From NCBI GenBank assembly GCA_964016885.1, contig OZ024742.1, forward strand, positions 94,922,001 through 94,986,000: 64,000 nucleotides of DNA. Reading direction: 5' to 3'. A program made the translations under genes and the position numbers. Positions 2,300 to 61,434 of this stretch are shown piece by piece. Numbering within the stretch: the stretch's first letter is position 1; each line of letters starts with the position of its first letter. Origin of the DNA: Eledone cirrhosa (lineage: Eukaryota). The notes beneath the pieces were generated by a model. The model was given only the letters and a program-made list of their open reading frames with translations. It did no database searches and was not told the origin of the DNA.

Positions 2300-3600
2300 G
2301 ATGTCAATGAGAAAGTCAATTTTTCTTCATAAAAATGGTATGAAAGAAAAAATAAAGGAGATAAAGGACAGAAGAAACACGAAGGTGGTGGTGGTGTGCC
2401 AAAAAAAAAATTAATAAATCTTGGGAGAAGAATGTATAGAAAGAAAGAAAATAAATAGAATGGAAGCAGAAATGAAAATATAGAAAGTTAGACAGACCTG
2501 CACACAAAGAAAAAGAAAATGAGATGGTAGGTAAAGAGGATAGGGTAAGGTTAAGGAGTTAGGGGAATAGACAGAAGGATGGAGATAAAAAATGAAGGGT
2601 GTAAAGAAGAATAGCAAAAACATGAGAGAGAGAGAGATGGGAAAGAGAAAATACAGAAAAAATTATATAAATATTGAATTATGATCTCAGTCTCTTGTTT
2701 TTCTTAATCTATGACAAGAATGAGGATGAGTTTGATGAGGATATTGATGATGAGGATATTGATGATGATGATATGTGATGATGGTGACAGAGATAATGGT
2801 GATGGTGGTATCATGATGGTATGGTGATGATGATGATAATGTTAAGGATTTTGATGATGATGGTGGTGGTTAGTTAGATTCATAGCAAAATAGCATAACT
2901 AATAGATAAAATATTAGAAGAAAGATAAATTATAGAAGTTAAGAAGATAAAAAAATGAAAAAAAATATTGTTAAAGTTAAAAAAGAACAGAAGATAGACA
3001 GAATAAGATATAGGAGGAGAAGAACAAATATGGAGAGAGAGATAGAGAGACAGAGAAAGGATAGAACAGATTACAGAGAGAGAGAGAGAGATCAACTAAC
3101 AGGAGGGTAAGGGAGAGGGAGATAGAGATATTGGAGAAAAGGAAATAGAAATAGAGAAGAGATACAGAGAGGAAAACATCAAACAGGGAGAGAGGAGGGA
3201 GGGAGAGAAGTTGAGAGAGATAACTAGAGATAGGTGGCAGAGAGAGGGAAGAGAAACAGTTAGGGAGTGGGAGAGAAAAGAGGAGAGAATAGGAAAGAAG
3301 AGAATTAGAAATAGAGAGGGAACAGGAGTTGGCGAAATAAATAGAGAAAAGAAGGTAGGTGAAGAAAGAGGAAGAAAACTAAAGATAGATTGATTGAGAG
3401 AGAACATGATATAAAGAGAGAAATCATGAGACTGAGAAAAAGAGAGAAAGAGGTAAAAAGATAGGGAGAAAGAGATACAACATGATATAAAGAGTAACAT
3501 AAGATGAGGTGAGAGAACAGGATATTGATAGAGAAGAGAAAGAAAAAGCTGGAGGGGAGGAATGAAAGAATGGTACTATAAAGAAAGAGTTAAGAAACTA
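2300..3600. repeat. GA-rich/(GAT)n low-complexity tract
   Basis: Long purine-rich stretch with GA and GAT runs. Confidence 0.8.
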
Positions 3601-3994
3601 AGAATCTTCTGCAGAAGTTAGAATCTGAAAAAAAAAATGAATAAAATTAAAATAAGAGATAAAATATAAGGAACACACACACTCAGACACACACTCACAC
3701 ACACACTCTCACTCACTCACTCACTCACACACTCACTCTCACACTCACAGTCACACATACTCACACACACACACATAAAATAAAAATTCCACCAAAACCC
3801 TTCCAGGAAAGACTTGACAAATATTGATTATTGGTGAAACATTTTGAAATATAAAACCTGAAATCCAGTAAAATAATTAAAAAATATATATATATACTCA
3901 TCAGAAAATAAAATGTAAATAAATGTAAAATAAAAAAATTCTAAATTTGCAAACATAAAGGTGTGTGTGTATTGAAATAACTATGTATGTATGC

Positions 3995-4398
3995 ACGCAC
4001 ACACACACACACACACACATATACATACACATATACACATACATACATACATACACACATATACACATACATATACACATACATACATACATACACACAT
4101 ACATACATACATACACACACATATATACAGACACACACACACATATATACAGACACACACATACATACACAGACACACACCCGCATACTCACACACAAAC
4201 ACACACACACATTATATGGGTGGAAGGAAAATAAATTGTTTTATAATTAATTTCTTCATTCTATATTAAAAGTTTTACTTTATGTTCTTTTTATAAGTTG
4301 TTTTTATTTCATTTTTAGTTGATTATGTTTATATTTTTGATAAAATAATTTCTGTTAAACACATATATATATACACAATATGCATACACATGCATACA

Positions 4399-4431
<33 letters not shown>

Positions 4432-4968
4432 GTATATTTGTGTGTGTATATATGTATATTTGTGTGTGTATATATATATATATATATATTATATATGTAT
4501 ATATATTTTATATATATTGTATATGTGTATATATTTATATATATTGTATATGTGTATATATTTATATATATTGTATATGTGTATATATATTGTATATGTA
4601 TATATATATTTATATATATTGTATATGTGTATATATTTATATATATTGTATATGTGTATATATATTGTATATGTATATATATTTATATATATTGTATATG
4701 TGTATATATTTATATATATTGTATACGTGTATATATTTATATATATTGTATATGTGTATATATATTGTATATGTATATATATTTATATATATTGTATATG
4801 TGTATATATTTATATATATTGTATATGTGTATATATATTGTATATGTATATATATATTTATATATATTGTATATGTATATATGTATATGTATATATGTAT
4901 ATATATTTATATAAATTGTATATATGTATATATGTATATATATATATGTATATATTGTATATATGTAT
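3995..4968. repeat. (CA)/(CATA) and compound TA/TG microsatellite arrays
   Basis: CA/CATA runs at 3995-4210; a ~24-26 bp higher-order unit TATATTTATATATATTGTATATGTG repeats from about 4490. Confidence 0.9.
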
Positions 4969-5214
4969 ATCATCATCATCATCATCATTTCATTTTACGT
5001 CCGCTTTTTCCTTGCTTGCAAGGGTGGGACGGGAACTAATTCTGGCTTGATTTCTACAGCTGGATGCCCTTCCCAACAGCAACCTCATTTACAGTGAGTG
5101 CTGGGTGCTTTTTTGCCGTGGCACCTCCACGGCCACTTTGCAGGGGAATGATATGGACCCCCTGTCCCTATCATCTCATTTCTACAGCTGAGTAAACTGG
5201 AGCAATGTGAAATA
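4969..5214 (-). mobile_element. CORE-like SINE (family C), 5'-truncated
   Basis: Reverse complement of the 54493-54828 body and tail; (GAT)n tail at 4969-4988. Confidence 0.85.
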
Positions 5215-7889: not shown

Positions 7890-7926
<37 letters not shown>

Positions 7927-8122
7927 ATACTTGGGGAGGGTCATATTTGTGTAATATTGCCAGAATTAATAACAGAACACACTCACTGTTTGGTTGGTTT
8001 TCGCTTCTCGCTGTCTTTTATATCAGTAATCTAACTTACTCGGTCCTCAATGTTGCCATTGACTGACCGACGGTCAAAAATAATACAGATACAATATAGA
8101 CACAAACACATATATATAGTTT

Positions 8123-8164
8123 ATCATAAATCTTTCGTTGCACATCTGCAACATCATCAGTGGT
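8123..8164 (-). ncRNA. Minimal type I hammerhead ribozyme motif (PLE-A, inverted arm)
   Basis: Minus strand: ACCA-CTGATGA-t-GTTGCA-gatg-TGCAAC-GAAA-gatt-TA-tgat. Confidence 0.75.
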
Positions 8165-8740
8165 GTTATATTTTCCTCCTGTTGTGTTGTATGTCTACGC
8201 CATTTTTATTCAGTCTGTCTATATATTTATTTATTTATTTGCGTGTTTGTTTATTTTATTTCGTCTTCTTTGCGCATGCGTTTGCGTGTGTGTATAGTGT
8301 TATGTTTGCTGTGTGATGGGTGACTAGTGTGTGTTTATGTGCTTGTTGTTATTGTGCTTGTGTATGTATTTATTTATTTATTTATCTTATTTTATTTACT
8401 TATTTATACTTCTCTTAGGTCAGTGTTGTTTGTTTGGGTGTTGTTGTTATTCCATTCATTCTTTCCGTTTAGCTTTGGTCTTCTAATTTCTATTTCACTG
8501 GCCTCCCTGATTTGCCTATCTGCTGGGTCATTTCTATGTTTAGATATTATTCTAATTTGCATAAGATGTACAGAGGGTACTTGCAGAAACATGACAACAA
8601 CATACATAGGTGAGACAGGTGAAAGGATAGACCAACACTGGGGGGAACTAAAAGGACGAAAAAACGGGACAGTACTATACGAACATGCTAGACAACAACA
8701 TTACGGTAACATAGACAACATAACAGGAGGAAAATATAAC

Positions 8741-8782
8741 ACCACTGACGATGTTGCATATGTGCAACGAAAGATTTATGAT
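8741..8782 (+). ncRNA. Minimal type I hammerhead ribozyme motif (PLE-A)
   Basis: ACCA-CTGACGA-t-GTTGCA-tatg-TGCAAC-GAAA-gatt-TA-tgat; stem I imperfect. Confidence 0.75.
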
Positions 8783-9025
8783 AAACTATATATATGTGTT
8801 TGTGTCTATATTGTATCTGTATTATTTTTGACCGTCGGTCAGTCAATGGCAACATTGAGGACCGAGTAAGTTAGATTATCGATATAAAAGACAGCGAGAA
8901 GCGAAAACCAACCAAACAGTGAGTGCGTCTGTTATTAATTCTGGCAATATTACACAAATATGACCCTCCCCAAGTATAACAATATTTGTTTCGACACACG
9001 ATTTCATATAAGAAACCTTGCAAAA

Positions 9026-9063
<38 letters not shown>

Positions 9064-9169
9064 TCATCATCATCCTCATCATTTAACATTAATTTTCCAA
9101 TGTTAACATGGGTATATATATATATCATTTCATTTTCATATATATATATATATATAGGAACCAGTAAGA

Positions 9170-9261
9170 CCCCGACGGCTGAGCTCAAGCCATTTCGACG
9201 GCTAATTCTGGACTAAATGAACATTTATCCTGGTATTTAAATAGCCGATCTTCTCAAGGGG
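9170..9261 (-). ncRNA. Type I hammerhead, U3-A8 core variant
   Basis: Minus strand: CCCC-TTGAGAA-GATCGGCTA..loop..TAGCCGTC-GAAA-TGGCT-tgagctc-AGCC-GTC-GGGG. Confidence 0.75.
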
Positions 9262-11150
9262 TAATTCCATATATGGTCAAAGTGATTGTCAAAAGTCAGT
9301 AGTAATTCTGTGATTGCAAATTAGTAGGGGAGATGGTGGCTAAACCTGCCAGTAGGAGAAAGAGGGGAGGAGTTGGAGTAGACCCAATCAAGCGTTGAAG
9401 TGCCAGCTACAGCTGGGCATGAGGTCAAAGAAGATACTGGGGAGGGGGAGGGGGAGGAGGAGGAAGTCGGAACGGTAGGTAGAACAATGAGGGGTAAAAA
9501 TATATATGAAAGAAAAAATACTGAGAGTGAAGAAAAGCGAATAAGTGTAAAGAAAAAAGTAAAGCAAGTTCTACGACCTAAGTCTCTAGCTATTGTTAGG
9601 CTAGATAAATAAATAAATAAAGAAAGAAAGAAGTAAAGAAAGAAATAAAGAAATAACGAAATAAGTAAACTAGGTGGGACGGAATAGGCAAGGACCCTTT
9701 TAAGAGGTATAAATACGTAAATCATACGGTGACGGGTCAACAAATGGGGCCAAAATACTAAAGAGACTACCACGGAATAAATAATAAAGGTTTCTATCCC
9801 GGGCACAATGCCAGCAACCACCCAGTGCAGCAAAGTAAACTAGTACGAGATAATAGTTCTGAGTCCCGAAAAAAATATATACTAATGCTAACTCTAAAAG
9901 ATCTTAAACAAGCTACATGAAAGTTCGTACGAAGTAAAGGTACAATACGGAAAAATAAATTCAGAATCCACCCCGCCCAAAAGAAAAGCGAAGAAAGAAA
10001 TACTGAAACGAGAAAATAGGGCATAAGTGCCACTAAGAAATATAGAAGGCACGGAAAATAGTGGGAGCGGTCGGAAAAAGGGGGCAAGTATCCGGGGTCT
10101 AAACCAACTGCTATAAAAAGCGGAGTCCGCCAAATCTATCATAGACTAGGGGAGGGGGTAGGGGTACTAAGGCTACAAGGGGCCAAAGGGCAGCCTCGGG
10201 TGGGCGAGAAAAGACGCCGACAAAGAAGAAGAGCTGGGGTAGAAGGACTAAAGAGGGATGGGGGGAAGGAAATAAAGGAAGCGATAAAAGAATAAAAAGA
10301 AGATCTTACGTCTCCCTTGGTAAGCAGGGGTTACCCATTGCAAAATCGGCAATGTGATCGTAATGTGATCTACCAGTGCAACGTGAGGACGGATACCTCC
10401 AACTAAGCCTATATAGGACTTACCGCATGTGACTTCAAGACCCGGCTATACCAACATAGACATACCTTCCGAAACCCGCCCCGGCGTCACGCTACTACAC
10501 TTTCGGGCCACATATGGGACCTCAAGGACAACAATATCACCTATGATCTCACTTGGAGATTACTGTCCAGAGCCAATTCTTACACGGGAGGACGCCGTCC
10601 GTGCAATTTATGCTCGGGGGAAACTTTACAAATGCTGTTTTCGACGGACCAACTCCTAAACAAGAAAGATGAACTGGTTACTGCATGTAAACATAGATTG
10701 CGTAGGACTTACCTCGCCCTCAAACCCCATAATGACCCGGGGGGGTAGACTAGGGCTATAACACCCCACTTGCCGATTTTGCAATGGGTAACCCCTGCTT
10801 GCCAAGGGAGACGTAATATCTTCTTTTTATTCTTTTATCGCTTCCTTTATTTCCTTCCCCCCATCCCTCTTTAGTCCCGCTTTTCTTCACTCTCAGTATT
10901 TTTTCTTTCATATATATTTTTACCCCTCATTGTTCTACCTACCGTTCCGACTTCCTCCCCCTCCCCCTCCCCAGTATCTTCTTTGACCTCATGCCCAGCT
11001 GTAGCTGGCACTACCAACGCTTGATTGGGTCTACTCCACCTCCTCCCCTCTTTCTCCTACTGGCAGGTTTAGCCACCATCTCCCCTACTAATTTGCAATC
11101 ACAGAATTACTACTGACTTTTGACAATCACTTTGGCCATATATGGAATTA

Positions 11151-11242
11151 CCCCTTGAGAAGATCGGCTATTTAAATACCAGGATAAATGTTCATTTAGT
11201 CCAGAATTAGCCGTCGAAATGGCTTGAGCTCAGCCGTCGGTG
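11151..11242 (+). ncRNA. Type I hammerhead, U3-A8 core variant
   Basis: Same motif as 9170-9261 with one stem I mismatch (GGTG). Confidence 0.72.
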
Positions 11243-11434
11243 TCTTACTGGTTCCTATTACCCACTCTACTACCCCAAGTATTGAGTACTTTGGTGCGTT
11301 ATAGTCCACCTGGTTCCTTACCACATTTCCTTCGTTATATATATATATATATATATATAGAGGTATATATATATATACACGCGCACACACCCATGTAGCC
11401 TTGAAAAATGGATGTTAAATGATGATATATATGT

Positions 11435-16064: not shown

Positions 16065-16353
<289 letters not shown>

Positions 16354-16398
16354 CGTAAAATAAGAAAATTATAAAATTAACTTACTTACTAAAATATC

Positions 16399-16480
16399 AC
16401 TTCCAACTAATTAGTTTCTAGAATGGAATAAATATATTTTCCGAAGAAGATACAGAGAAGCATTCCGTCGTCAGGGAAGT
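16399..16480 (-). ncRNA. Type I hammerhead ribozyme (retrozyme unit 1)
   Basis: ACTTCC-CTGACGA-cGGAATG..loop..CATTCTa-GAAA-CTAATTAG-TT-GGAAGT: 6-bp stem I, palindromic stem III, GUU triplet. Confidence 0.8.
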
Positions 16481-16920
16481 CTATTCTCATCTAAGTATCC
16501 AGGCAAGGCGTGGACACTGGAAACTTATTAAAAAATAATTCAGTGGATAGAAAATAGCAAAGCGTGGACTGAATTCCTAGCTATTGAGAAAATCACTGCC
16601 TCTGCGTCGGTGGCAAATTCAAAAAGAATCAATCACGTGACATCGAGGTCAATCAGTGGAAAGTGGTTTGCTAATAAGACAGCGGCCTGCCTGCTACCAT
16701 AGCAGCAGTCATGGCCAATATTGCTCGACAAATAATTTGGAGATAATTATAAAGAATTAATATCTTGTAACATATATATACATACAGATGCATATCAATG
16801 CTAGCAAATATATAGGTTTTGTCTTAGTAACTTTGTGGTTCAATGCATGGGGTTGCAGAACAATAATATGAGAGACGTAAAATAAGAAAATTATAAAATT
16901 AACTTACTTACTAAAATATC

Positions 16921-17002
16921 ACTTCCAACTAATTAGTTTCTGGAATGGAATAAATATATTTTACGAAGAAGATACAGAGAAGCATTCCGTCGTCAGGCAA
17001 GT
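16921..17002 (-). ncRNA. Type I hammerhead ribozyme (retrozyme unit 2)
   Basis: Same motif; perfect GGAATG/CATTCC stem II, one stem I mismatch. Confidence 0.78.
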
Positions 17003-17435
17003 CTATTCTCATCTAAGTATCCAGGCAAAGCGGGGACACTGGAAACTTATTAAAAAATAATTCATTGGATAGAAAATAGCAAAGCGTGGACTGAATTCCT
17101 AGCTATTGAGAAAATCACTGCCTCTGCGTCGGTGGCAAATTCAAAAAGAATCAATCACGTGACATCGAGGTCAATCAGTGGAAAGTGGTTTGCTAATAAG
17201 ACAGCGGCCTGCCTGCTACCATAGCAGCAGTCATGGCCAATATTGCTCAACAAATAATTTGGAGATAATTATAAAGAATTAATATCTAGTAACATATATA
17301 TACATACAGATGCATATCAATGCTAGCAAATATATAGGTTTTTGTCTTAATAACAGTGTGGTTCAATGCATGGCGTTGCAGAACAATAATATGAGAGACG
17401 TAAAATAAGAAAATTATAAAATTAACTTACTTACT

Positions 17436-17470
<35 letters not shown>

Positions 17471-25949: not shown

Positions 25950-28100
25950 TCATCATCATAGTTTAACGTCCATGTTCCACGCTTGCATGGGTTTGGACGG
26001 GAGTTTCCCACTTGAGGCAAGAGTGGTTGTCTTGCTCGCATAGGACTGTCTGGCGGGTTTTCTACAGTTGGATGCCCTTCCTAACACCAACCACATTTAC
26101 AGTGTGGGTCTGGGAGATTTTTACCGTGTTGCCTACACGGCCACATTACAGCGTGGACTATGTGTTTTTTTGTCGTGACACCTACACGATCTCATTTGTT
26201 TCAGCCTGGATGTTGTGGCACCAACATAACTTTACATTGAAAGGGGCGGTGTGGATGGGACGGGGGTAGTGGGGGGTGTATTTTGTTAGAGATGCCTACT
26301 GACTGTAGTAGGTTTTACTTTGTATTTAGGTAAGGCGGGTTTTCTCTATTACTGAGTATCGCCAAAGATCTCGGTCCAGTGACATTGTCTTGGAGAGGTG
26401 TAAGTGTGTGAGGTCGGAATTTATCAGGCCGTCCCAGGTTTTTCTGGGTGTGCCTACTCCGTGGCTACCGTCTATCTTTATTGCCCTGCACTTTTTTATA
26501 CAGCTGTCGTCTTTCATGCGCAGCACGTGACCATACCAACGTAGCCTTCTCTCGAGTAAACAACATCTGATCCCTCTTATTTCTAATTTTTCCCTTAGAT
26601 CGTTTATGCTTTGCCATTCGCGTATATTACTATTACACATCCAGCGGAGCATGCAAGCTTCGTTCCTCTCTAGTCTGCGTATATCCTCTGCACACAATGC
26701 CCAGGTCTCACTACCATGCAACATTGCTGTTCGTATGCAGGCATCATACAGCCTGCCTTTCATTTTTAGGGAGAACCCTTTAGCGGCTAATAGTGGTATA
26801 AGCTCTCTGAACTTTTTCCATCCAGTTCTGACTCTAGCTACTGTACTTTCAGAGCACCCTCCCCCACTGCTGATTTTGTCACCCAGGTAATGGAAGCTGT
26901 CCACTATTTCTATAGAACCCTCTGCGCAATTGAAAGAGCTAGTATAATTGTGGGCACTTGCTGCTACTTATTGCACCAGAGCACCGGCCACATGTAAAAT
27001 CTATGTTCTTAGTTAGCTTACCTGTGATTCCACTACATATTTTATGCACCCATACTTTGCCTTTGGACATAAAATGGACTTTCTACCTACGCCTTTCCTA
27101 CACACTGAGCATGGCCATTTCCAAGAAGGGACCGGCGCCTTATTTTCTTTCCTACAAACTAGAACTTTAGTCTTAGCCAGGTTAATTTTAAGGCCTTTTG
27201 ATTCTAGGCCGTGCTTCCATGTTTGGAATTTCTTCTCTAGCTCGGCCATTGATTCAGCTATGAGCGTTAGATCATCTGCCTATAGGAGTTCCCATGGGCA
27301 GCCGGTCTTGAACTCCACTGTTATAGCCTGAAGGGCAATAATAAATAGTAGGGGGCTAAGAACAGAGCCCTGATGAACACCAACTTTTACGCTAAACTCT
27401 TCACTATATTCGTTGTTAATTCTAACCTTGCTGACTGTTTCTTTATACATGGCTTGTATAGCTCTCACAAGCCATTCATCAACACCTAGTTTTCTAAGAG
27501 CCCACCAGATAATGGAACGGAGAACTCTGTCGAAGGCTTTCTCCAAGTCGACAAAAGCTAAGTATAGGGGTTTACTTTTAGCTAGGTTCTTCTCCTGTAG
27601 TTGTCGTACAATGAAAATAGCGTCTGTGGTACTTTTGCCTGACACAAACCCGAACTGCATTTCATCTATATCGATTCTCTCTATGATTAGTTGCGCTATT
27701 ACTTTTTCCGTGACCTTCATGACCTGGTCAATTAATTTAATGCCTCTATAGTTACTCCTATCTAGGGCATCTCATTTACCCTTGTAGCAGTTAATGATGA
27801 TGCTGCTATGCCAGTCCTTCAGAACAAACCCATTCTGTATGATTTGGTTTACTATCCGGGTGACCATGGTGTGTTCCACCGTTCCAGAGGCTTTCAGCAT
27901 CTATTTCCGAAGGCCCAGCCGCCTTACCCGTCTTCATATCTTTGATTGCCTTACTTATTATACTCCCCTCGACTAACACTGCTGGTCACTCTATTGGGTC
28001 GATGTGGGGGAGACTGTCTTCCTCCCATTTATTCTCCTCATTTAGTAGCCTTTCGTAGTGACACTTCCAAGCTACCTTCTTATCAGCGTCAGTGATGGCA
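25950..28100 (-). mobile_element. RTE-clade LINE, 5'-truncated, RT pseudogene
   Basis: QFGF..GKSTTDAIF, AFVDLEKAFDRV, VGVHQGSVLSPLLF, LL*ADDL (YADD with stop), FHYLG, LHGSETW, RRLRWYGHVLRM; frameshifts; 3' UTR and (GAT)n tail at 25950-26325. Confidence 0.95.
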
Positions 28101-36572: not shown

Positions 36573-38809
36573 ATAGGAAAATGTTTAACCCCAGCGGCAG
36601 AGCTCAAGCCGTTTCAACAGCTATTTCTGGACTAAATTAGAATTTTTAACGTGGTAATAAATAGCCGAACTTTTCAAGGGGTAATTCCTTATATAGGAAG
36701 ATTATAGTTAGTTACCAAAACACTCACACCCATCACCGACCAGGAAAGAAACATCATTCTCCACGCCAGGAAGACAGTCTTCCTTTTCGACAACTCCAAG
36801 TGGATAAAGAGAGCTCCTGACTTCCCCTTTGACGTCAGTATGAGCATGACCGACTCGGCCGAGGTGACTGATCTTATAGGATTATTCCTACTACATAAAC
36901 TCACCGAAACGTTTCCTGCATTCGGCGGTGGATTGTACCGAGACGATGGACTCTTTACCCTCAAAGGCTACAACCCCAGTAGTACAGACTGGGTCCATAA
37001 ACTACTAATCAACTTCTTCCGGGACTGGGGATTTAAAATCACCCTACAAACATCCCTAAGCTGAGTCAATTTCCTGGACGTTACTCTCAACCTCGAAAGT
37101 GATCCTGTGCTACCCATACAGGAAACCAAACGACAACCTTCACTACATCCACCGCCGCTCTAACCATCCTAGAAACATCACCAATAACCTGGTTAAAAAC
37201 ATCTCCCTCCACATATTTCGTTTGTCCGCTAATGAGCAGATATTCGATGAGCATGCGCCTCATTACAATCAGGTCCTCAAGCGAAGTGGCTTTCGAGAGG
37301 AAATCTCCTTCTATCCAGCTCCCCTTAGCGAGACCGGCAGGCGACGCCGTTGCTCACACCACGTAACCTGGTTCAACTCTCCCTACAATGCCGAGGTGGC
37401 AACACCAATCGGGAAAATCTTTAGGCTGCTAAAAAACACTTCCCACCACAACACCGCTACCACAACATAATCAACAAAAACACTATCAAACTCTCCTACA
37501 GCACCACATCCAACTTCGCACAAAACATCGCCTCCTCAACCAACAAGAAACTCAACACCTATGGAAGAAACAACTTAGACATTAGTGGAGAGCCGACCAG
37601 GAGGTGTAACTGCCCTGATAGATCTACATGCTCCCTCAACAGCAGATGCCAAGAACGTAACGTGATCTACCAATGCAACGTGAGGACGGAAACCTTCAAC
37701 AAAGCCTATATAAGATTAACCACTTGCGACTTCAAGACCCGGCTCTACCAACACCGACATACGTTCCAAAACCCGGCCCGGCGACATGTCACTACACTTT
37801 CGGGCCGCATTTGGGACCTCCAACATAACAAACCATCTTACTTGGAGCTTACTGTCCAGGGCTAACTCCTACATGGGAGGACGCCATCAGTGTAACTTAT
37901 GCTCGGAGGAAACATTACAAATGCTGTTTACAAAGGACTAACTCCTAAACAAAAAAGACGAACTGGTAACTGCATGTAAACACCGATTGCATAGGACTTA
38001 CCTTGCCCTCAAACCCCCTCATGACCCGGGTGCAACATCCTCCTTTTCCCCACTTGCCGAACAAGATAGGGGAAACCCCAGCATACATAGGTAGATATAC
38101 TTTTTTATTTTTATTTTCTTCTTCCCTTTATCTCTTCTTATCACTTCCTTCCACTCCCTCTCTTTTTCCTTTTTCCTCTTTCACCTACCCCAAGGCAGCC
38201 CATCAGGCTTCTGTTGCCTCAGTACCGCCACCCCAGTAAATTATATATAGTATTTGCCGAAAACGCAATACCAGCTAAAAATATAGCAACTGCTTTAGAC
38301 TCTAGACATTTTTTTTATTATTGTTACTATTTAATTTTTTTTATTTTTTTTTGTTTATTATCTTTTAATCTCAATTTATTAACCATTTCTATAATGTCCC
38401 ACTCTTAGTATCCTTCTTTGCCAGCTTCCTAACTAGCCTAATTTCATACACACTCCTTAAAATTTGCTGTATAGAATTCACTTTCAATGCTTGACCAGCT
38501 CCATCCACTCCCTCATTGTTCTACAGGCAAGTTCAGCCACCCACAGCCATGAAAGGTTTAATTGTGTTTACAAGAAATTTTGACCAATCGTTTTGACAAC
38601 TATAAGCTTCCCATATAAGGAATTACCCCTTGAAAAATTCTGCTATTTATTACCAAGCTAAAAATTCTAATTTAGTCCAGAAATAGCTGTCGAAACGGCT
38701 TGAGCTCTGCCATCGGGGTTAAACATTTTCCTATTACCCACGCTACTACCCTAAGTATTGAGTACTCTGGTGCGTTATGGTCCATCTGGTTCTTTACCAC
38801 ACTTCCTTC

Positions 38810-39389: not shown

Positions 39390-39919
39390 TCGGCCTTACA
39401 CTTTCAAACTATATTTGTCTGTATAAGTAACTTTAACCCTTTATTTTCGACATAAAAATACACACATACATACAAAGACCTGTAAAGTTTTTTTGGGGGG
39501 GGCCTTTCTTATCAATCTTTTTACATTCAATTATCAGCCTTATACTTTCAAAGTCAATTTTTATGTTGAAGTAACTTTCAACCTTTAATACATACATACA
39601 TACATACATATACACACACACACAAATACCTGTCACTTAATTTACACACACATCGGCCTTACACTTTCATACACACATACATACATATACACACATACAT
39701 ACAAATACCTGTCACTTAATTTACACACACATCGGCCTTACACTTTCAAACTAAATTTTTCTGTAGAAGTAACGTTAACCCTTTCTTTTCGACATAAAAA
39801 TACACACATACATACAAATAGCTGTAAATTTTTTTGGGGGGCCTTTCTTATCAATCTTTTTACATTCAATTATCAGCCTTATACTTTCAAAGTCAATTTT
39901 TATGTTGAAGTAACTTTCA
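39390..39919 (+). repeat. Internal direct duplication in Helitron 5' region
   Basis: 39390-39580 is repeated at 39732-39919; shorter repeats at 39590-39750. Confidence 0.85.
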
Positions 39920-40055
39920 CCATTTATTTTTCGATACCCATTTACTTACTAACATTTGTATCACAACAACAATAACAATATTCATAAACAGACAGTAGAC
40001 TTTCAAAGTCAATTTTTCTGTAGAAGTAACTTTCACACTTTCTTTTGGACATAAA

Positions 40056-40779
40056 ATGCCACCTAAAAATAGAAGTAGCCTCAGTCGACATACCGCGTCA
40101 GCAGTGGCGCAAAAGGCTACTATAGCAAAAGAGTCCTCTGAGGAAAATGCTTCAAGACTTTTACAGACAGCCTTATGTCCAGCAGAATGTCGAGCCGCTG
40201 AAAGTTTCCAACAGCGCACCGCACGCCTAGCCAAAATGGCTTCATACCAGGCTTCTTCCAGGGCTTCAGAGAGCCGTGAACAAAGGTCGAAGCGCCTGGC
40301 TAGAAACGATGCCACTAATGCTGCTTCCAGGTCTTTGGAACGTTTAAAGCAACGGACAGCTCGCCTTCCTACGAACGCTGCGGCTATGACTACTTCCATG
40401 GCTTCTGAAGATGCAGACGGGCGGTCCATTAGCATTGCAAATGTTGCTTCTGCTATTGCTGCCAGACCTTCCCACCAACCACACGACCAATATTCTACGT
40501 TCAAGCGTAACAGTCGACGGCGAGACTGCACGCGGTGTGACGAGCCCCAACAGCCCTTACTGGCACCTACGGGCTTTCAAGTATGAGCAAAATGTTAATT
40601 ACTCGATGCGCTCTGACATAAATATAGGCGAAATGCGCTTCAATTGCCAATTCTGCAATGCTACAAAGTGGGCTGGGGAGCCACCTGCAATGTGCTGCTT
40701 AAACGGTAAGGTCACTATGCCCCCTCTTACGGAACCGCCAGAGCCTTTGAAGGAACTACTGACTGGTTATACCTCAAGG
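40056..40779 (+). pseudogene. Helitron RepHel N-terminus with zinc finger (frameshifted)
   Basis: MPPKNRSSLSR..; AFKYE..IGEM..CQFCNATKWAGEPPAMCCLNGKVTMPPLTEPPEPLKELL. Confidence 0.88.
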
Positions 40780-40813
40780 TAAAAAAAAAACCCTGATCCC
40801 TCCAATAAAAAAC

Positions 40814-42075
40814 GCTCCTGTGGGTACCGGAAAAACTTTTGTAACGAATTTGATTCTCGCTAAGATTCGTCAGGAGAAAAAAGTTGCGTTGTCCGTTGCA
40901 TCGTCCGGGATCGCTGCTACTTTGCTGCCGGGAGGAAGGACAGCACATTCAACCTTTAAACTCCCTTTGGATTTAGTAAAAACTGAGACACCAACATGCA
41001 ATATCAGCAAGAGTTCACACAAAGCTCTGGTTCTCAAAAGATGTTGCCTCATTGTTTGGGATGAGTGCACAATGGCACACAAGGGTGCCCTTGAGGCATT
41101 GGACTAGGCCCGGAAAGACATTAGGGATTCTACGGCTCCTATGGGTGGCGTAACCCTTCTGCTATCAGGGGATTTTCGGAAAACGCTGCCTGTCATCCCA
41201 AAATGGACAAGAGCTGATGAAGTGCGTGCCTGTCTTAAGTCGTCCATGTTGTGGCTCCAGGTGAATAGTTTGTACCTGAGCACAAATATGCGTGCTCATT
41301 TGCATGGTGACAACATGTCTGCAGCACAGAACATTTTAGCACTTGGTGAGGGCAAGATCCCTGCGGATGACAAGGGCGGCATAGCAATCGACACCCTGTG
41401 CAACATTGTGAGCAGCCCTTCTGACCTTTGGGAAGCAGTTTTACCTAATGTCTCATCTAACTTTAAAAACCTCGATTGGCTCAGCGAAAGAGCCATCCTT
41501 GCTCCGAAAAATACCATGGTTAATTTTATTAACGAGCAGCTGATTGAGAAGATTCCCAGTAAAGATCACATCTTCAAATCAGACCCCGACGATATCGTTA
41601 ATTATCCGGTTGAGTTATTAAATCTCCTTGAGCCCCCAGGGCTCCCACCTCACATTATTAAGCTTAGGGTTGGCTGTCCCATTATGCTAATAAGGAACTT
41701 GCGTCCACCAAAGCAGTGCAACGGTACTCGCATAGTCGTGAAGTCACCAACACCCACTTGATTGAGGCCACCATTGTAACGGGGTGTGGAAGAGGGGAGA
41801 ATGTTTTCATTCCAAGGATGAACCTTTTCCCCTCGGTGTCAGATATCCCGTTCGATTTCCGGCGATCCCAATTCCCGGTGAGACCATGTTTTGCCATGTC
41901 CATTAACAAGTCACAAGGGCAAACATTGTCGGTGGCGGGTATCCTTTTGGGGGAGCTATACTTCTCCCATGGCCAACTTTATGTTGCCTGTTCCCGCGCA
42001 GGGAGCAGGAATGGACTTTTTGCTTACTCTCCTCAAGGGATGACACGCAATATCGTCTACAAAGAGGTGCTATAG
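40814..42075 (+). pseudogene. Helitron Pif1-family helicase (disrupted)
   Basis: GTGKTF, VASSGIAATLLPGGRTAHS, IVWDECTM, LSGDFRKTLPV, RAILAPKN, QFPVRPCFAMSINKSQGQT, HGQLYVACSR. Confidence 0.95.
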
Positions 42076-45520: not shown

Positions 45521-47601
45521 CAAGACCCAGGATCAAGTCAACGGTAGCCTAAATAAGTTCTGAGCATGGATGGATATAGATATAGGCTGAAAATAATATG
45601 AATTCAGATTTCCCTTTTTAAAGTTGGCTTACTTAGTAACTGAAAGTACATGGCTTTTCCCTGAACAGAGTGCGATTACATTGCAGGGTAACCTCCAATT
45701 GGTGCTGATACTCATGTTTCCCAGTTCAGTAGACTGGAACAATGTGAAATGAAATGTTTCGTTCAAGAACTCAATGGGCTGTTCATCATTAGAATTGTAC
45801 TACTCACATTATTATCATGAGTTCAATTCCCTAACTACTTGACCACACACCTTTACACATTGAAGAAAATGAATTTAAAACTTGTACTTTATAGAAATGA
45901 AAATTAAGTTTACAGCTCACACCTATGCAGTTTAGGCTGGCCTCTTATGAGGTTGCTTCTTATAGGGAATTTATTTGATTTTTTAATGATAGGAGTTGAA
46001 CCCATGTTCTTATGATCATGAGGCCTACACCCTAACAACTAGGCTATATAAAGATTTTAAATTTGCACTATATAGAAAAGCCTGAAATATTGTAAAAATT
46101 GAAAACAAAGAAATGTATAATCAATCTGCTTTTTCATTCACTAAGGTTTTGAATATCAAAATATTTAGTGTCTTTAAATTTCACAGAATCAATTTTAGCA
46201 TGTAGTTACTTTTTTTATGAATACTCTGTAAATATATGAAAAGGGCGAATAAAGAAGTGGAAAATTGAGGGATACTAGATGAAATATTATAAAAACTGAG
46301 TAACACACTAAAAAAATGACAGTAAACACATACACACATACATATACTTGCACCCACCCACACATATGCATGTACAAACGCGAACACATACCCATGCACA
46401 AACACAAACATACCCATGCACAAACACAAACATACCCATGCACAGACACAAACACATCTGAGGCAAGTTGTCGATGTCAAGATGGAAAGGTTTATAACCT
46501 AAGTTCTATAATGATGCTCAACTTCTACTACAGGTATATTTACTCTTTCTTAACCTGTGAAATACCTTATGCTTTATATATTTAGAAGTTTTATGAATCC
46601 TTTATTTTTCTGCTATGATATTTTTTAATGGCAGAGCCATTAGAAGGATGTTTAGAAGGCTTCATGATATTCATTCCAACTCTCTGTACTCTGAGTTCAA
46701 ATCCTACAAAAATCGGCTTTGCCTTTCATCTTTTCAAGTTTCATAAATAAGGTGCCAGTCCAGTACTGAGGTTGATTCGTCCTCTATCTCTCTTTTTCCT
46801 CCTTCTCTCTTGCTCTCTCTGTTGGTGTCACTGTAAAATGTAACCTACTCAGTAAAGTGGAAGTGCTGGTGTTATGATAAAATGCACCCAGTACATTCTG
46901 TATGGTAGTTGGTTTTAGGAATGGTATACAACCATAGAAACCAAGTAAAATATGGAATATATGAAAAAGATGAGGTCTCTCTGATCTATCTAAACATAGG
47001 CTATGGCAACTCATTCAAGTCATGCCACCACTATCACTAGCCACATCAACCACCAACACTATCTCTATCCCCACAATCCACCACAAACTCTCCAATCCCC
47101 CTCTATTACTAATGCCACCAACCCTAAAAAATACTTCCATCACTATCATTAATAACACTAACCCCCCAAACCATCACCATTGTTACAAACATCACAAGAA
47201 GAGATACTATTACATCATGAATCTAAAGCTATAAATAACAACCACCATCACTATCAGTAATAACCTAGCCTCCTCCTCCCAAAACCACCATCATTGCTAT
47301 AAACACCACAAAAGTACTGTTACAAAAAAGAATCTATAACCATAATTAACAACTCATTCATAAAAAAACTGAATTTTTAAATATAAAGAAACAAAACTCC
47401 TTAAGAAACATCGTCCAACTATGCACACCTTAACTCCTGATGGAGACATAGCAATACCATTGTGACATACAGTGTGTCTTTGGTATTTAAATCTGATGGA
47501 ACTAATCCATCTCCAGTACTGACTGAACATTGTTGATTTCTTTCAGCAAAATATAAAGGTCATCATCATCATCATCTTTTTCTGTCTGCATTCCACCTTT
47601 G

Positions 47602-48400
47602 TGGGTAATAGTGTTTGTGGTTATTGTGGGCAGTTGTGAGTAGTATTGTTTGTGGTTATTGTGAGTAGTATTGTTTGTGGTTGTTGTGGTTAGTATTGTT
47701 TGTGGTTATTGTGAGTAGTATTGTTTGTGGTTATTGTGGGTAGTATTGTTTGTGGTTGTTGTGGGTAGTATTGTTTGTGGTTATTGTGAGTAGTATTGTT
47801 TGTGGTTATTGTGGGTAGCAGTGTTTGTGGTTGTTGTGGGTAGTATTGTTTGTGGTTGTTGTGGGTAGCAGTGTTTGTGGTTGTTGTGGATAGCAGTGTT
47901 TGTGGTTGTTGTGGGTAGTATTGTTTGTGGTTATTGTGGGTAGTATTGTTTGTGGTTGTTGTGGGTAGTATTGTTTGTGGTTGTTGTGGGTAGCAGTGTT
48001 TGTGGTTGTTGTAGGTAGCAGTGTTTGTGGTTGTTGTGGGTAGTATTGTTTGTGGTTATTGTGGGTAGTATTGTTTGTGGTTGTTGTGGGTAGTATTGTT
48101 TGTGGTTGTTGTGGGTAGCAGTGTTTGTGGTTTGTTGTTGGTAGTATTGTTTGTGGCTGCTGTGGGTAGCAGTGTTTGTGGTTGTTGTGGGTAGTATTGT
48201 TTGTGGTTTGTTGTTGGTAGTATTGTTTGTGGTTGTTGTGGGTAGTATTGTTTGTGGTTGTTGTGGGTATTATTGTTTGTGGTTTGTTGTTGGTAGTATT
48301 GTTTCTGGTTGTTGTGGGTAGCAGTGTTTGTGGTTTGTTGTTGGTAGTATTGTGTGTGGTTGTTGTGGGTAGCAGTGTTTGTCGTTTGTTGTTGGTAGTG
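47602..48400. repeat. 25-bp GT-rich minisatellite
   Basis: About 30 copies of GGGTAGTATTGTTTGTGGTTGTTGT with GTAGCAGTG variants. Confidence 0.92.
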
Positions 48401-49360
48401 TTCTTATTGTCTTGTAGTGTTTGTAGCTATTAGTATTGGCAGAGATGATGCACCAGTTGGAAGAGTAGAATGGGTATTTTTACTCTCTGTGGGGCCCATT
48501 TAACAGTGGTGTAGATTTTGGGGATGTTTAATGTGGCATTGAGAGGCTGCAATAATGTTGATGTAGCTTGATGGTTTTCTACTTCAAGTAAGAGGTGCAG
48601 ATGGTTGCATGGATGTGGTTATTGCTACATTTTTTGTGGTTTCTTTTTGGCTTCTGTTTCATGTATTTATTTGGAAAGGAAGAGAAGGAGAAGGAAGGGG
48701 TTAAAACAGAGGGAGAAACAAGAAAGATTAGCTCCTGGAATGGAAGTGGATTGAGAAAGAAAATGGTAAAATGATGGATGGAATAGCTAGGGAAATAATC
48801 AATAAAACTTGCCTTTAGACATAAATATAGACTTGTGCATGTGTTCATGTCTACACACACAAACACATACATATAAGTATATAATGCTTTATTTTCATAT
48901 AAAGTTTGTAGCATACAGAGACATGTTTTCATATAGGTATGTAGGTATACACAAGATAAATATACACACACATGCACTCACACAAACATATATTTTCATA
49001 ATATATATATACATACACAGAGAGTAAGAGATAAACACATATAACAAGGAAAACAGACATTAAATAGTGATGATGATGATAATGATGCTACACATATATC
49101 TATATCCATATATATAATTGTGTGTATATATATGTATGCCCACCTAAGCTCACAACTTAAAGCAACAATGATTTGAATTGTAGCTGCAAAAAATGAATGA
49201 CGGAATAAATGTAGCTTCATGTATTGAGTACTTTCTGTTTTGTTAATATGCCCCATGTGTGTATGCCTGTATATAGAAAGAGTGGAGGACTCATATGTGT
49301 GAGTGTTTCTTTGTGTTTGTGTGTGTATGTGAGTGTGTGTGTATATATATATATATATAT

Positions 49361-59205: not shown

Positions 59206-59242
<37 letters not shown>

Positions 59243-59244
59243 CA

Positions 59245-60345
59245 GATGCAGCGATCCCGCGAGTGGTGCCACTCATACCAAGTGATTCCTTGAAGTGCTG
59301 GAGACGAACGGGTACCCTACCCCGCTCACAAACAGAGTAAGATACACCAGACACAAGAGACAGAGAAACACCCAAGGCAAGTGCTTCCTTAAAATACCAC
59401 ACCTGGGCGAGAATACCACCAACCCTATCCGCAAGGCTATACGGAGGGAGGGCCTCGACATCCACCTGGCTCACTCGGGCCCCTCCCTGCGAAGATGCCT
59501 CTCCAGGAAACCCCGGAAATCAACTGACGCGTGCTCCCTCAGAGACTGCCCGATGCGCCATACGAACTGTTGCCTATGCACATACGTCGTGTATAAGATA
59601 GAATGCAACAACCAATACTATATAGGTAGCACAATTCGGCCGCCGCACATCCGGATCAAGGAGCACACTAACACCAGGGCCTCGTCTTTCCGGAAACACA
59701 TAGCCAAATGCGGAAACAAAGACGGAAGGCCCATTGTCATAATTCTAACGACAGAAAGAAACGTCGGCACATTACGAATAAAGGAAGCACTTTGGATTAA
59801 ACGCCTAGGGCCACAAATAAACAACCGATCCGAGAGAAGCGAAATGAGGTGGTTGGTTTAAGTAAACAAACGATACAGCAACACACGCACAAGCAAGGCA
59901 GCAACACACGCACACACACACACACAGTAGCATTCCACCATACGAACATACTACACTGCCAATACAGACGAACGAGGCAACAACACACCCACACACACAC
60001 TCAAGCGAGACAACAACACACGCACACACACACACAGTAACATTCACCAAACAGGCAGAGAATACTATGGACTGACAGCTAACGCCACCCCACTCCCACA
60101 ATTGAAAGAACTATTTCAGCCGCCGACATCTGCTTGACCGACCCCATTTCACGCGCACGCGCGCTCTGCTGAATACCTCAGATATTCAAAACAACGAACA
60201 GCGGAGGACACGTTTCGCACCTTTCCGACAGACAACCCCCCATCCCCCCGGAAAAAAACCCCAGTTGATGGATGTGAATCCGAAATATATAGGGACAATT
60301 AAATCTCTCCCAAGGTAACTGTATCTCGTGTTATTATTTTTATCC
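59245..60345 (+). mobile_element. Penelope-like element family C, 5'-truncated
   Basis: ORF 59295-59861: LETNGYP, LKIPHLG, C.LRDC, VVYKIEC..YYIGSTIRPPHIRIKEH, LRIKEALWIKRLGPQINNR (GIY-YIG); HHR-like motif at 60259-60294. Confidence 0.85.
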
Positions 60346-60359
60346 TTTACGCTCTTTCC

Positions 60360-60448
60360 TACATTCTTCTACTCGCTACATTCTTCTACACGCTACATTC
60401 TTCTACACGCTACATTCTTCTACATACTACATTCTTCTACACGCTACA
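60360..60448. repeat. 17-bp minisatellite (TACATTCTTCTACACGC)
   Basis: About 5 tandem copies. Confidence 0.85.
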
Positions 60449-60620
60449 CATCTCAATGTACACTCACTTACATCTCTCTCTTTCCACCACCAGATCTTGT
60501 TACCCGGAGATTTACCCATCTGCATTGTCGAGGCTTCCAAAATGACTTAAAGAAATATACCTTATTATTCCACAATGTTTCAAGCAAAGTTCAATACTCT
60601 CTTATATATATATATATATG

Positions 60621-60682
<62 letters not shown>

Positions 60683-60686
<4 letters not shown>

Positions 60687-61367
60687 AGACGTAAAATAAG
60701 AAAATTATAAAATTAACTTACTTACTAAAATATCACTTCCAACTAATTAGTTTCTGGAATGACTGTTATTTAGACACAACTTATATATTTGCTAGCACTG
60801 ATATGCATCTGTATGTATATATATGGTACTAGATATGAATTCTTTATTATTATCTCCAAATTATTTGTCGAGCAATATTGGCCATGACTGCTGCTACGGT
60901 TGTAGGCAGGCCGCTGTCTTATTAGCAAACCACTTTCCACTGATTGACCTCGATGTCACGTGTTCGATTCTTTTTGAATTTGCTACAGACGTAGAGGCAG
61001 TGATTTTCTCAATGGCTTGGAATTCAGTCCACGCTTCGCTATTTCCTATCCACTGAATTATTTTTTAATAAGTTTCCAGTGTCCTCGCTTTGCCTGGAAA
61101 CTTACATGAGAATAGACTTTCCTGACGACAGAATGCTTCTTTATATTATTCTTCTGAAAATATGTTTACTCCATTCCAGAAACTAATTAGTTGGAAGTGA
61201 TATTTTAGTAAGTAAGTTAATTTTATAATTTTTTTATTTTACGTCTCTTATATTATTGTTCTGCAACTCCATGCATTGAACCACACTGTTATTAAGACAA
61301 AACCTATATATTTGCTAGCATTGATATGCATCTGTATGTATATATATGTTACTAGATATGAATTCTT

Positions 61368-61373
<6 letters not shown>
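60683..61373 (+). mobile_element. Second retrozyme-like copy: 1.17 units plus inverted 5' arm
   Basis: 60762-61373 is the reverse complement of the 16-kb unit, with 60762-60850 recurring 523 bp later at 61285; 60683-60761 is an inverted copy of about 61172-61250; (TA)n on both sides. Confidence 0.82.
61116..61198 (+). ncRNA. Type I hammerhead ribozyme (retrozyme)
   Basis: ACTTTC-CTGACGA-cAGAATG..CATTCCa-GAAA-CTAATTAG-TT-GGAAGT. Confidence 0.78.

Positions 61374-61434
<61 letters not shown>

Follow-up and report, generated by a model that had tools for sequence, protein, structure and literature searches.

The closest described counterparts of the element considered here are the non-LTR retrozymes of metazoans, which are non-coding, low-GC units arranged in tandem, from monomers to multimers, every one of them bearing a type I hammerhead motif, and which occur as thousands of dispersed copies in coexistence with Penelope-like elements, or PLEs (Cervera and de la Pena, PMC7229834). 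A Penelope link for animal retrozymes was proposed in the Discussion of the same paper in 2020, while a review of that year (PMC7761336) states that retrozymes lack any conserved motif that would point to a partner. Co-occurrence and homology to PLE pseudo-LTRs (pLTRs) have since been put forward in support of the link by Li, Clavereau and Pollet (2026, bioRxiv 10.64898/2026.07.22.740005), who also argue for an ancient pLTR origin of Xenopus retrozymes; we found no junction-level evidence in this preprint. Thus the opinion, voiced in a first-pass annotation of the DNA described below, that the link is "usually only hypothesised" is dated.

On the side of the putative partners, the PLEs of the Hydra clade insert into (TA)n, form head-to-tail tandems, carry an inverted 5'-truncated copy, possess a "tail" at one end only and have a hammerhead just upstream of their ends (Craig 2021, PMC8557442; for the tail, see also Arkhipova 2013). 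Non-autonomous Chlamys PLEs (such as MRC1; PMC8557442) are non-coding PLE dependants with multicopy head-to-tail insertions; they share 3' sequence with autonomous families and belong to a clade without canonical hammerheads. For the coding element Poseidon PAc, in vitro experiments showed that both strands of an AT-rich target are cut and extended on linear RNA from two internal reverse transcription start sites, which define the tail, that these sites lie in an AC-rich stem-loop not homologous to the target, that unprocessed RNA is the main substrate, and that ribozyme cleavage is dispensable (Frangieh et al. 2024, PMC11167929).

The insertion analysed here lies in a 64,000-nucleotide stretch of Eledone cirrhosa DNA (contig OZ024742.1, positions 94,922,001 to 94,986,000), hereafter the window, to which all window positions refer. 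Between two (TA)n target tracts, 60603-60682 on the left and 61374-61433 on the right (no strand assigned), an inverted arm of 79 bp (60683-60761, minus strand) meets at a blunt junction a sense copy of 612 bp (60762-61373, plus strand), which consists of 89 bp of a 5'-truncated upstream unit (60762-60850, unit positions 435-523) and one full non-coding unit of 523 bp (60851-61373) ending at what we call site B. The "terminal redundancy" of about 88 bp reported earlier is, accordingly, there in length, and the 523 bp with it, but it is the truncated upstream unit rather than a fixed feature, and the 89-bp repeat has 5 differing positions. With one mismatch in 79, the arm is the reverse complement of the sequence on the 61175-61253 side, reaching 61172; inward, it stops at the base with which the 3' strand of hammerhead stem II (61172-61177) begins, and it would represent a second cDNA, begun at site A (unit 403) and terminated at unit 322. 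The coordinates thus bear out an inverted arm that stops in stem II within (TA)n, although the stop, while real, carries no meaning, being one among many junction positions. Site A, a TA-like end point (61250-61253, plus strand), lies 60 nt past the predicted cut site, and the main copy overshoots the arm start by the 120-nt tail between A and B (61254-61373, plus strand; unit 403 to 523), both outer ends entering (TA)n. On the same strand, one predicted bulged hairpin lies 3 nt after site B (60854-60872), with a lower YTC/GAR stem, an upper stem and a 2-nt 3' bulge, and another 5 nt after site A (61258-61281).

The same arm/tail layout recurs in three coding elements of the window, all on the plus strand, as the first-pass annotation had recognised along with the overshoot of about 120 nt: a decayed Hydra-clade PLE with an arm from A and the main copy to B (36576-38809), whose family is of the likely enzyme donor type; a truncated copy of the same Hydra-clade group with an A arm and a B end (9157-11335); and a truncated member of another PLE family that targets (TA)n (7923-9028, the 7919 family), which shows the layout without the bulged hairpin and served as a control. 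A sibling insertion without an inverted arm (16349-17442, minus strand; subfamily 2), 2.1 units long, has its 3' end at site A; the stretch 16349-17438 is 92.6-93% identical to the 60683-61373 copy, so that the two do belong to one family, as had been claimed, though to separate subfamilies. The left TA tract also borders the 3' end of an unrelated coding element, a truncated GIY-YIG PLE at 59240-60603 that ends in this tract and has 8,835 candidates genome-wide; this element (59286), which contains a degenerate minimal hammerhead near 60265, was rejected as a relative of the unit, the TA tract being all they have in common, with zero homology to the unit. Elsewhere in the window are broken ORFs at 39900-42075, which we take to resemble Helitron Rep/helicase, ORF fragments on the minus strand at 26326-27771, presumably resembling an RTE-type reverse transcriptase, a tRNA-like Rfam match of 34 bits at 45981-46053, possibly a SINE head, and a tandem array with a 25/50-bp period at 47599-48432.

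The unit has 3130 candidate places in its own 3.0-Gb genome, and a 20-nt pattern of the ribozyme 3' core has 12,862 exact matches there as against 0 for the control, numbers that speak against chance. Units taken from the first 100 core matches fall into at least nine clusters, or subfamilies, that are 67-89% identical and 521-571 bp long; their tandem periods cover the same 521-571 bp, with up to 9.3 units per array. The unit length exceeds the 150-450 bp given in PMC7229834 and falls inside the 51-972 bp range of the 2026 preprint. At least ten subfamilies and one more distant family are, without exception, seamless non-coding tandems; no ORF of at least 45 codons is shared among the 10 subfamilies, and the copies end at the fixed sites A and B in (TA)n, without LTR structure. 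A 77-codon ORF was dismissed as a family gene since it is confined to the subfamily of the 60683-61373 copy. By every feature that can be tested in DNA, the element is of the non-LTR retrozyme type, with a predicted ribozyme and a predicted circular RNA.

Several further observations concern the family. The more distant non-coding tandem family (L003:421-940, L300:2434-2980, L047:1600-2250), which turned up in the flanks of some copies, has a canonical-looking hammerhead with a GUA site, the same hairpin after site A in 3/3 copies, and TA tracts in common with the main family; a Hydra reverse transcriptase beside the relative in L047 was set aside as a separate insertion beyond two TA tracts. 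A 9.3-unit array (L031:2328-7305) shows 0-2 differences between units and shares an identical inversion junction (unit 272/362, 5-nt microhomology) with a 1.3-unit insertion on another contig, L007. At window 60955-60964, a CACGTG palindrome, presumably E-box-like, is kept in five aligned subfamilies and is a candidate internal promoter element. Contigs of four sequencing runs show that many unit variants exist, and no more than that; in one run (X4), from a second organism, three contigs cover parts of the unit, one of them 195 nt long with 2 differences.

The predicted type I hammerhead (61116-61198, plus strand) consists of stem I (61116-61121/61193-61198), core halves at 61122-61128 and 61179-61182, a long stem II, which has a mismatch at 61130 in this copy, and a palindromic stem III, with predicted cleavage at a GUU site after 61192. 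An Rfam search of the ribozyme region returned no hammerhead at the gathering or E-value thresholds, and the region folded in isolation did no better than shuffles. Its stems do, however, covary: across 11 sequences, 98% of the stem cells are paired, a value reached by 0/500 shuffles, with slid controls at 17-58%, and one stem II pair occurs in all four Watson-Crick forms. Both core halves are kept in 177/212 copies, the 3' half of the representatives having been selected by the search pattern itself. The ribozyme is atypical: stem II is long, and all 191 copies scored combine a conserved C-A mismatch that closes it with a GUU site. Features of this kind are expected to slow cleavage, and a palindromic stem III would suit cleavage as a dimer. 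The long stem II, the C-A closing mismatch and the GUU site also set the unit apart from the published metazoan non-LTR retrozymes; ribozyme activity of the unit is a prediction from sequence. The terminal region of a coding Hydra-type family, Hydra717, holds a hammerhead-like motif (L169:2685-2770; window 38625-38720) with a long stem II and the core UUGANAA instead of CUGANGA, which we take to be a compensated 3-8 pair.

The rules by which copies end were examined in two samples. In the first, 93 distinct insertions ranked by similarity and drawn from the two window subfamilies, with duplicates of one locus removed, 3' ends fall at unit 403 (A) or 520-523 (B), 120 nt apart, and almost nowhere else, and 146 of the 149 ends at A or B adjoin (TA)n. 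Two arms are present in 62 of the 93; nine of these have one non-standard end, while in the other 53 A or B marks either end, 52 of them pairing one A with one B and a single one being B+B (p 1e-14 against free pairing). Either arm can be the longer one (18 vs 34), and both arms exceed one unit in 4 insertions. The second sample, 63 insertions taken in order of position along the initial 44 Mb of C1 (with two loci grouped manually, one locus common to both samples, and four that look like duplications of one event), contains 29 A+B insertions and 28 single copies; a non-standard end is seen in 6, and the combinations A+A and B+B are absent. Four short copies (L277, L278, L316, L331) have one and the same 5' end, with an upstream flank common to three of them, and are probably a duplication of one insertion plus its neighbour. 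The 5' ends, 155 in all, are scattered across the unit, and the junctions between arm and main copy mostly show 1-3 nt of microhomology. Palindromes at junctions are not enriched (4/57 within 20 nt as against 4.5 expected), nor is the geometry of L1-type twin priming, in which the 5' end of the long arm is tied to the start of the short one (5/57 as against 6.6 expected); target-site duplications are unreadable inside (TA)n.

Coding Hydra copies obey the A+B rule in 7/7 two-ended loci (L169+L170, L171-L175, L177), and A+B pairing together with (TA)n targeting is found in the non-Hydra 7919 family as well, where six loci (L195, L199, L204, L227, L230, L232) also show a third end point, about 14 nt beyond the second. 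The choice between A and B is the known PLE tail and accounts for what had been read as a "different circular permutation": the copies are not free permutations and use two fixed sites, as coding PLEs do. Because two fixed priming sites of this kind are active in vitro on linear RNA, a different start point says nothing about circularity. Of the family-wide features that the first-pass annotation anticipated, inverted arms recur and so does a tandem period, spanning 521-571 bp, while permuted ends give way to two fixed 3' ends; its Penelope inversion signature, an inverted 5'-truncated copy plus a one-sided tail as expected of a PLE dependant, holds with A+B in 52/53 and 29/29 cases.

PLE-type integration of the retrozyme is, in our judgement, strongly indicated. 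The tail is longer here (120 nt) than in the local Hydra families (about 80 nt) and in published ones (30-40 nt; PMC8557442). Like PAc, the retrozyme would have both target strands cut and extended from two internal start sites in an AT-rich target; unlike PAc, it is non-coding and its sites are TA-like, and for PAc we found no report, in PMC11167929, of a strict pairing of one A with one B per insertion. Nor did we find, in PMC7229834 or the 2026 preprint, a description of two-armed insertions with fixed ends for metazoan non-LTR retrozymes.

Which PLE might supply the enzyme is a separate matter. Five coding groups were sampled: the 7919 and 59286 families, and three families of the Hydra type, whose ORFs of 714-719 aa are open. 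In one of these three, Hydra717, the ORF of 717 aa (open in L169 at 2957-5110) carries the Hydra features listed by Craig 2021 (RWR for RWK, DKT, CxCX5C, CxxC/CxH, insertion in (TA)n); Pfam did not recognise this ORF, and the clade assignment is made because of these motifs. The ORF is open in tandem copies, and the 3,531-bp unit presents the same order as the retrozyme, i.e. ribozyme-like motif, A, tail, B. At one place (L169-L170, G000:C1:437.20-437.21 Mb) a tandem of four complete Hydra units of 3,531 bp, their ORFs open, is accompanied by an inverted arm; sites A and B lie there about 20 and 105 nt past the predicted ribozyme cut, so that a cut transcript would carry both at its 5' end and would raise the same circle-or-multimer problem as in the retrozyme.

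A profile of the ten subfamilies showed no homology to 115 coding PLE loci, which sample their families incompletely, except for the window's own copy; in particular, no autonomous family among these loci was found to have a 3' end resembling the unit, and in this, as in its hammerhead, the retrozyme is unlike the Chlamys MRC1 type. Lacking an ORF and detectable homology to the sampled Hydra families, it has in common with Hydra-clade PLEs a bulged hairpin after the ends, computed in this analysis. One hairpin follows A and one follows B: among representatives it stands at +3 after B in 10/10 and at +5 after A in 8/10, the chance of a match being about 0.02 per 15-nt window for a motif that was defined post hoc, after it had been seen. 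In Hydra717 it follows A in 21/23 copies and B in 9/11, and after A it is present in 11/12 copies of Hydra719 and in 12/12 of Hydra714 (at +16-20), with 0/22 after site B of the latter two families. At the ends of the 7919 family, the (TA)n-targeting control, it was found in 0/17 and 0/2 cases; the control on the 59286 family stopped short of its termini. Folding energies are weak (z -1.0, +0.75, -1.7, -2.3). Insertion into (TA)n, expected of a Hydra-clade client, is observed, the 7919 family sharing this target. Since the unit has no homology to the 115 coding loci, it is by this small structure alone that a partner can be named, where the 2020 review (PMC7761336) had none to offer for retrozymes. 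We regard a Hydra-clade PLE as the likely partner, judging from sequence, and the hairpins as candidates for a role in docking.

The scenario that we consider quite probable is that a non-coding hammerhead tandem, with fixed-end copies in (TA)n, is mobilised in trans by a Hydra-clade Penelope RT/GIY-YIG protein. The unit transcript would be bound by this protein, likely via the two bulged hairpins after sites A and B; the endonuclease would nick both strands of (TA)n, and sites A and B would each be primed by one of the two 3' ends, as a rule on the same RNA. Both cDNAs would then extend upstream to independent lengths, often exceeding one unit and passing the ribozyme cut site without a stop, and their ends would be joined head to head by short microhomology, yielding arm and main copy, unless a single cDNA survived.

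That arm and main copy come from one source is seen in the data themselves: they are at least 93% identical in 22/26 position-ordered insertions (two duplicate rows dropped), as compared with 5.6% of 1819 between-locus pairs, and rare variants, i.e. those rare in the sample rather than private in the genome, are shared by arm and main copy at 10/9,551, by successive turns at 28/19,422 and between loci at 25/618,061. The predicted cut site is crossed by 138/149 arms, and twice or more by 58/149, in a sample in which long copies are over-represented; there is no accumulation of 5' ends at it (3 as against 3.3 expected), and no deletion was found around it in 1,924 positions. A linear, self-cleaved monomer would limit the arms to 60 nt from A and 180 nt from B; since most arms instead run past the cut site, the template was unit-continuous. 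The proposal that a hammerhead RNA is reverse-transcribed and integrated by PLE machinery thus keeps its basis in a non-coding tandem with the inversion/tail signature, while the permuted start drops out as evidence of a circle.

The form of this unit-continuous RNA is where the strongest competing explanation enters, according to which PLEs do mobilise the retrozyme, but invariably from a linear read-through multimer that stays uncleaved; circles, if formed, are by-products, and arrays are regrown by genomic tandem duplication. In L040, both arms match the in-register unit at 8/8 differing sites (8:0:0; p about 0.012 corrected for 82 insertions), which is to say that a heterogeneous multimer was copied in register by both arms; in our scheme, too, an uncleaved multimer (or a multimeric circle) served at least once. 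The slow cleavage expected from the ribozyme's features points the same way. So do the dominance of unprocessed RNA in vitro and the multimeric mRNA proposed from it (Frangieh 2024, PMC11167929). Yet a three-copy test over 82 insertions and 6,613 sites gave odd-one-out counts of 67:49:66 (p 0.19), which is a star pattern in which units have inherited few differences from one another, as expected if the copies come from a homogeneous template, although young, homogeneous parents could account for part of it. Eight rare variants occur in all copies of an insertion, the pairing of the ribozyme is conserved, and turns within an insertion differ by about 1% as against up to 33% between subfamilies, which would demand of the read-through multimer a repeated monomer bottleneck and favours a recurring monomer stage. 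Nine further rare variants, 4 of them in L084, are limited to one arm across two or more turns and fit two templates or later homogenisation. All in all, an exclusively linear template seems to us possible but rather doubtful, and we would give about even chances to a self-cleaved, re-ligated circle as the main template. Somewhat short of even, and offered tentatively, is the specific picture of an RT dimer that sits on two equivalent hairpins of one small self-cleaved circle and primes from both (TA)n strands, with both subunits rolling, the retrozyme being a molecular mimic that keeps the docking pair and the ribozyme. If this were true, any RNA with this 150-nt module would be writable into (TA)n as two-armed concatemers.

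Alternatively, the unit could be the pLTR of an unsampled RT-coding PLE, its copies being truncated ends or a recent deletion derivative. Coding Hydra elements have a terminal region with the same order, ribozyme - A - tail - B, and 24/57 Xenopus retrozyme families are homologous to repeats, nearly all of them PLE termini (Li et al. 2026). Of 92,414 Hydra-like candidates, scoring covered the top 63, and more distant Hydra-like fragments are present in the flanks of unit-bearing loci. When ten PLE proteins were compared by tblastn with 153 unit-bearing loci, flank matches appeared in 35; going by the coordinates, none of these runs into the unit in the manner of a pLTR; in L180 and L324 the PLE fragment adjoins a broken arm end. 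A match of unit 368-419 to Hydra loci was discarded, being AT-rich, in mid-UTR and not at Hydra ends. In none of the 63 position-ordered insertions does an ORF continue into the unit (upper 95% bound 4.6%), TA stands at the 5' side of 47/57 single copies, and comparison of 5' flanks revealed no upstream sequence shared at a common boundary, save in one duplicated group. Copies in which the unit is the terminal repeat of an RT-coding element, the case named in the first-pass annotation as fatal to its reading, were not found among the 153 unit-bearing and 115 coding PLE loci, and a parent of this kind is also hard to square with the many subfamilies and the distant family being seamless tandems. 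We therefore consider this reading improbable as an account of the present copies, while an ancient origin of the unit from a pLTR is likely.

The view that the inversions go back to self-priming on a fold-back, to twin priming of the L1 kind on linear RNA or to rearrangement of a satellite at the DNA level, with A and B as endonuclease resolution sites, is very improbable: self-priming has been invoked for head-to-head PLE junctions (Arkhipova 2013), the tail was ascribed to endonuclease resolution (Craig 2021, PMC8557442), A and B are TA-like, and local amplification would also give an array as invariant as that of L031, but the junctions show neither an excess of palindromes nor twin-priming geometry and have short microhomologies, both arms can exceed one unit, and later in vitro work traced the tail to two sites where the RT starts (PMC11167929).

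Returning to mobilisation in trans by a Hydra-clade protein, the concept of PLE-mobilised retrozymes is already in print; for the A+B rule and the shared hairpin, as for inverted arms in animal retrozymes, we found no earlier report in open-access articles, searched without their supplements. What the family adds is a set of junction rules drawn from a population of insertions, an enzyme candidate whose ORF is open in the genome that houses the retrozyme, and a specific RNA element that can be mutated. The A+B rule also sharpens the mechanism of PLE integration itself. The long-assumed partnership between retrozymes and PLEs thus becomes directly testable, with regard to the identity of the partner, the function of the hairpin, the pairing of A with B, and the choice between circle and multimer.
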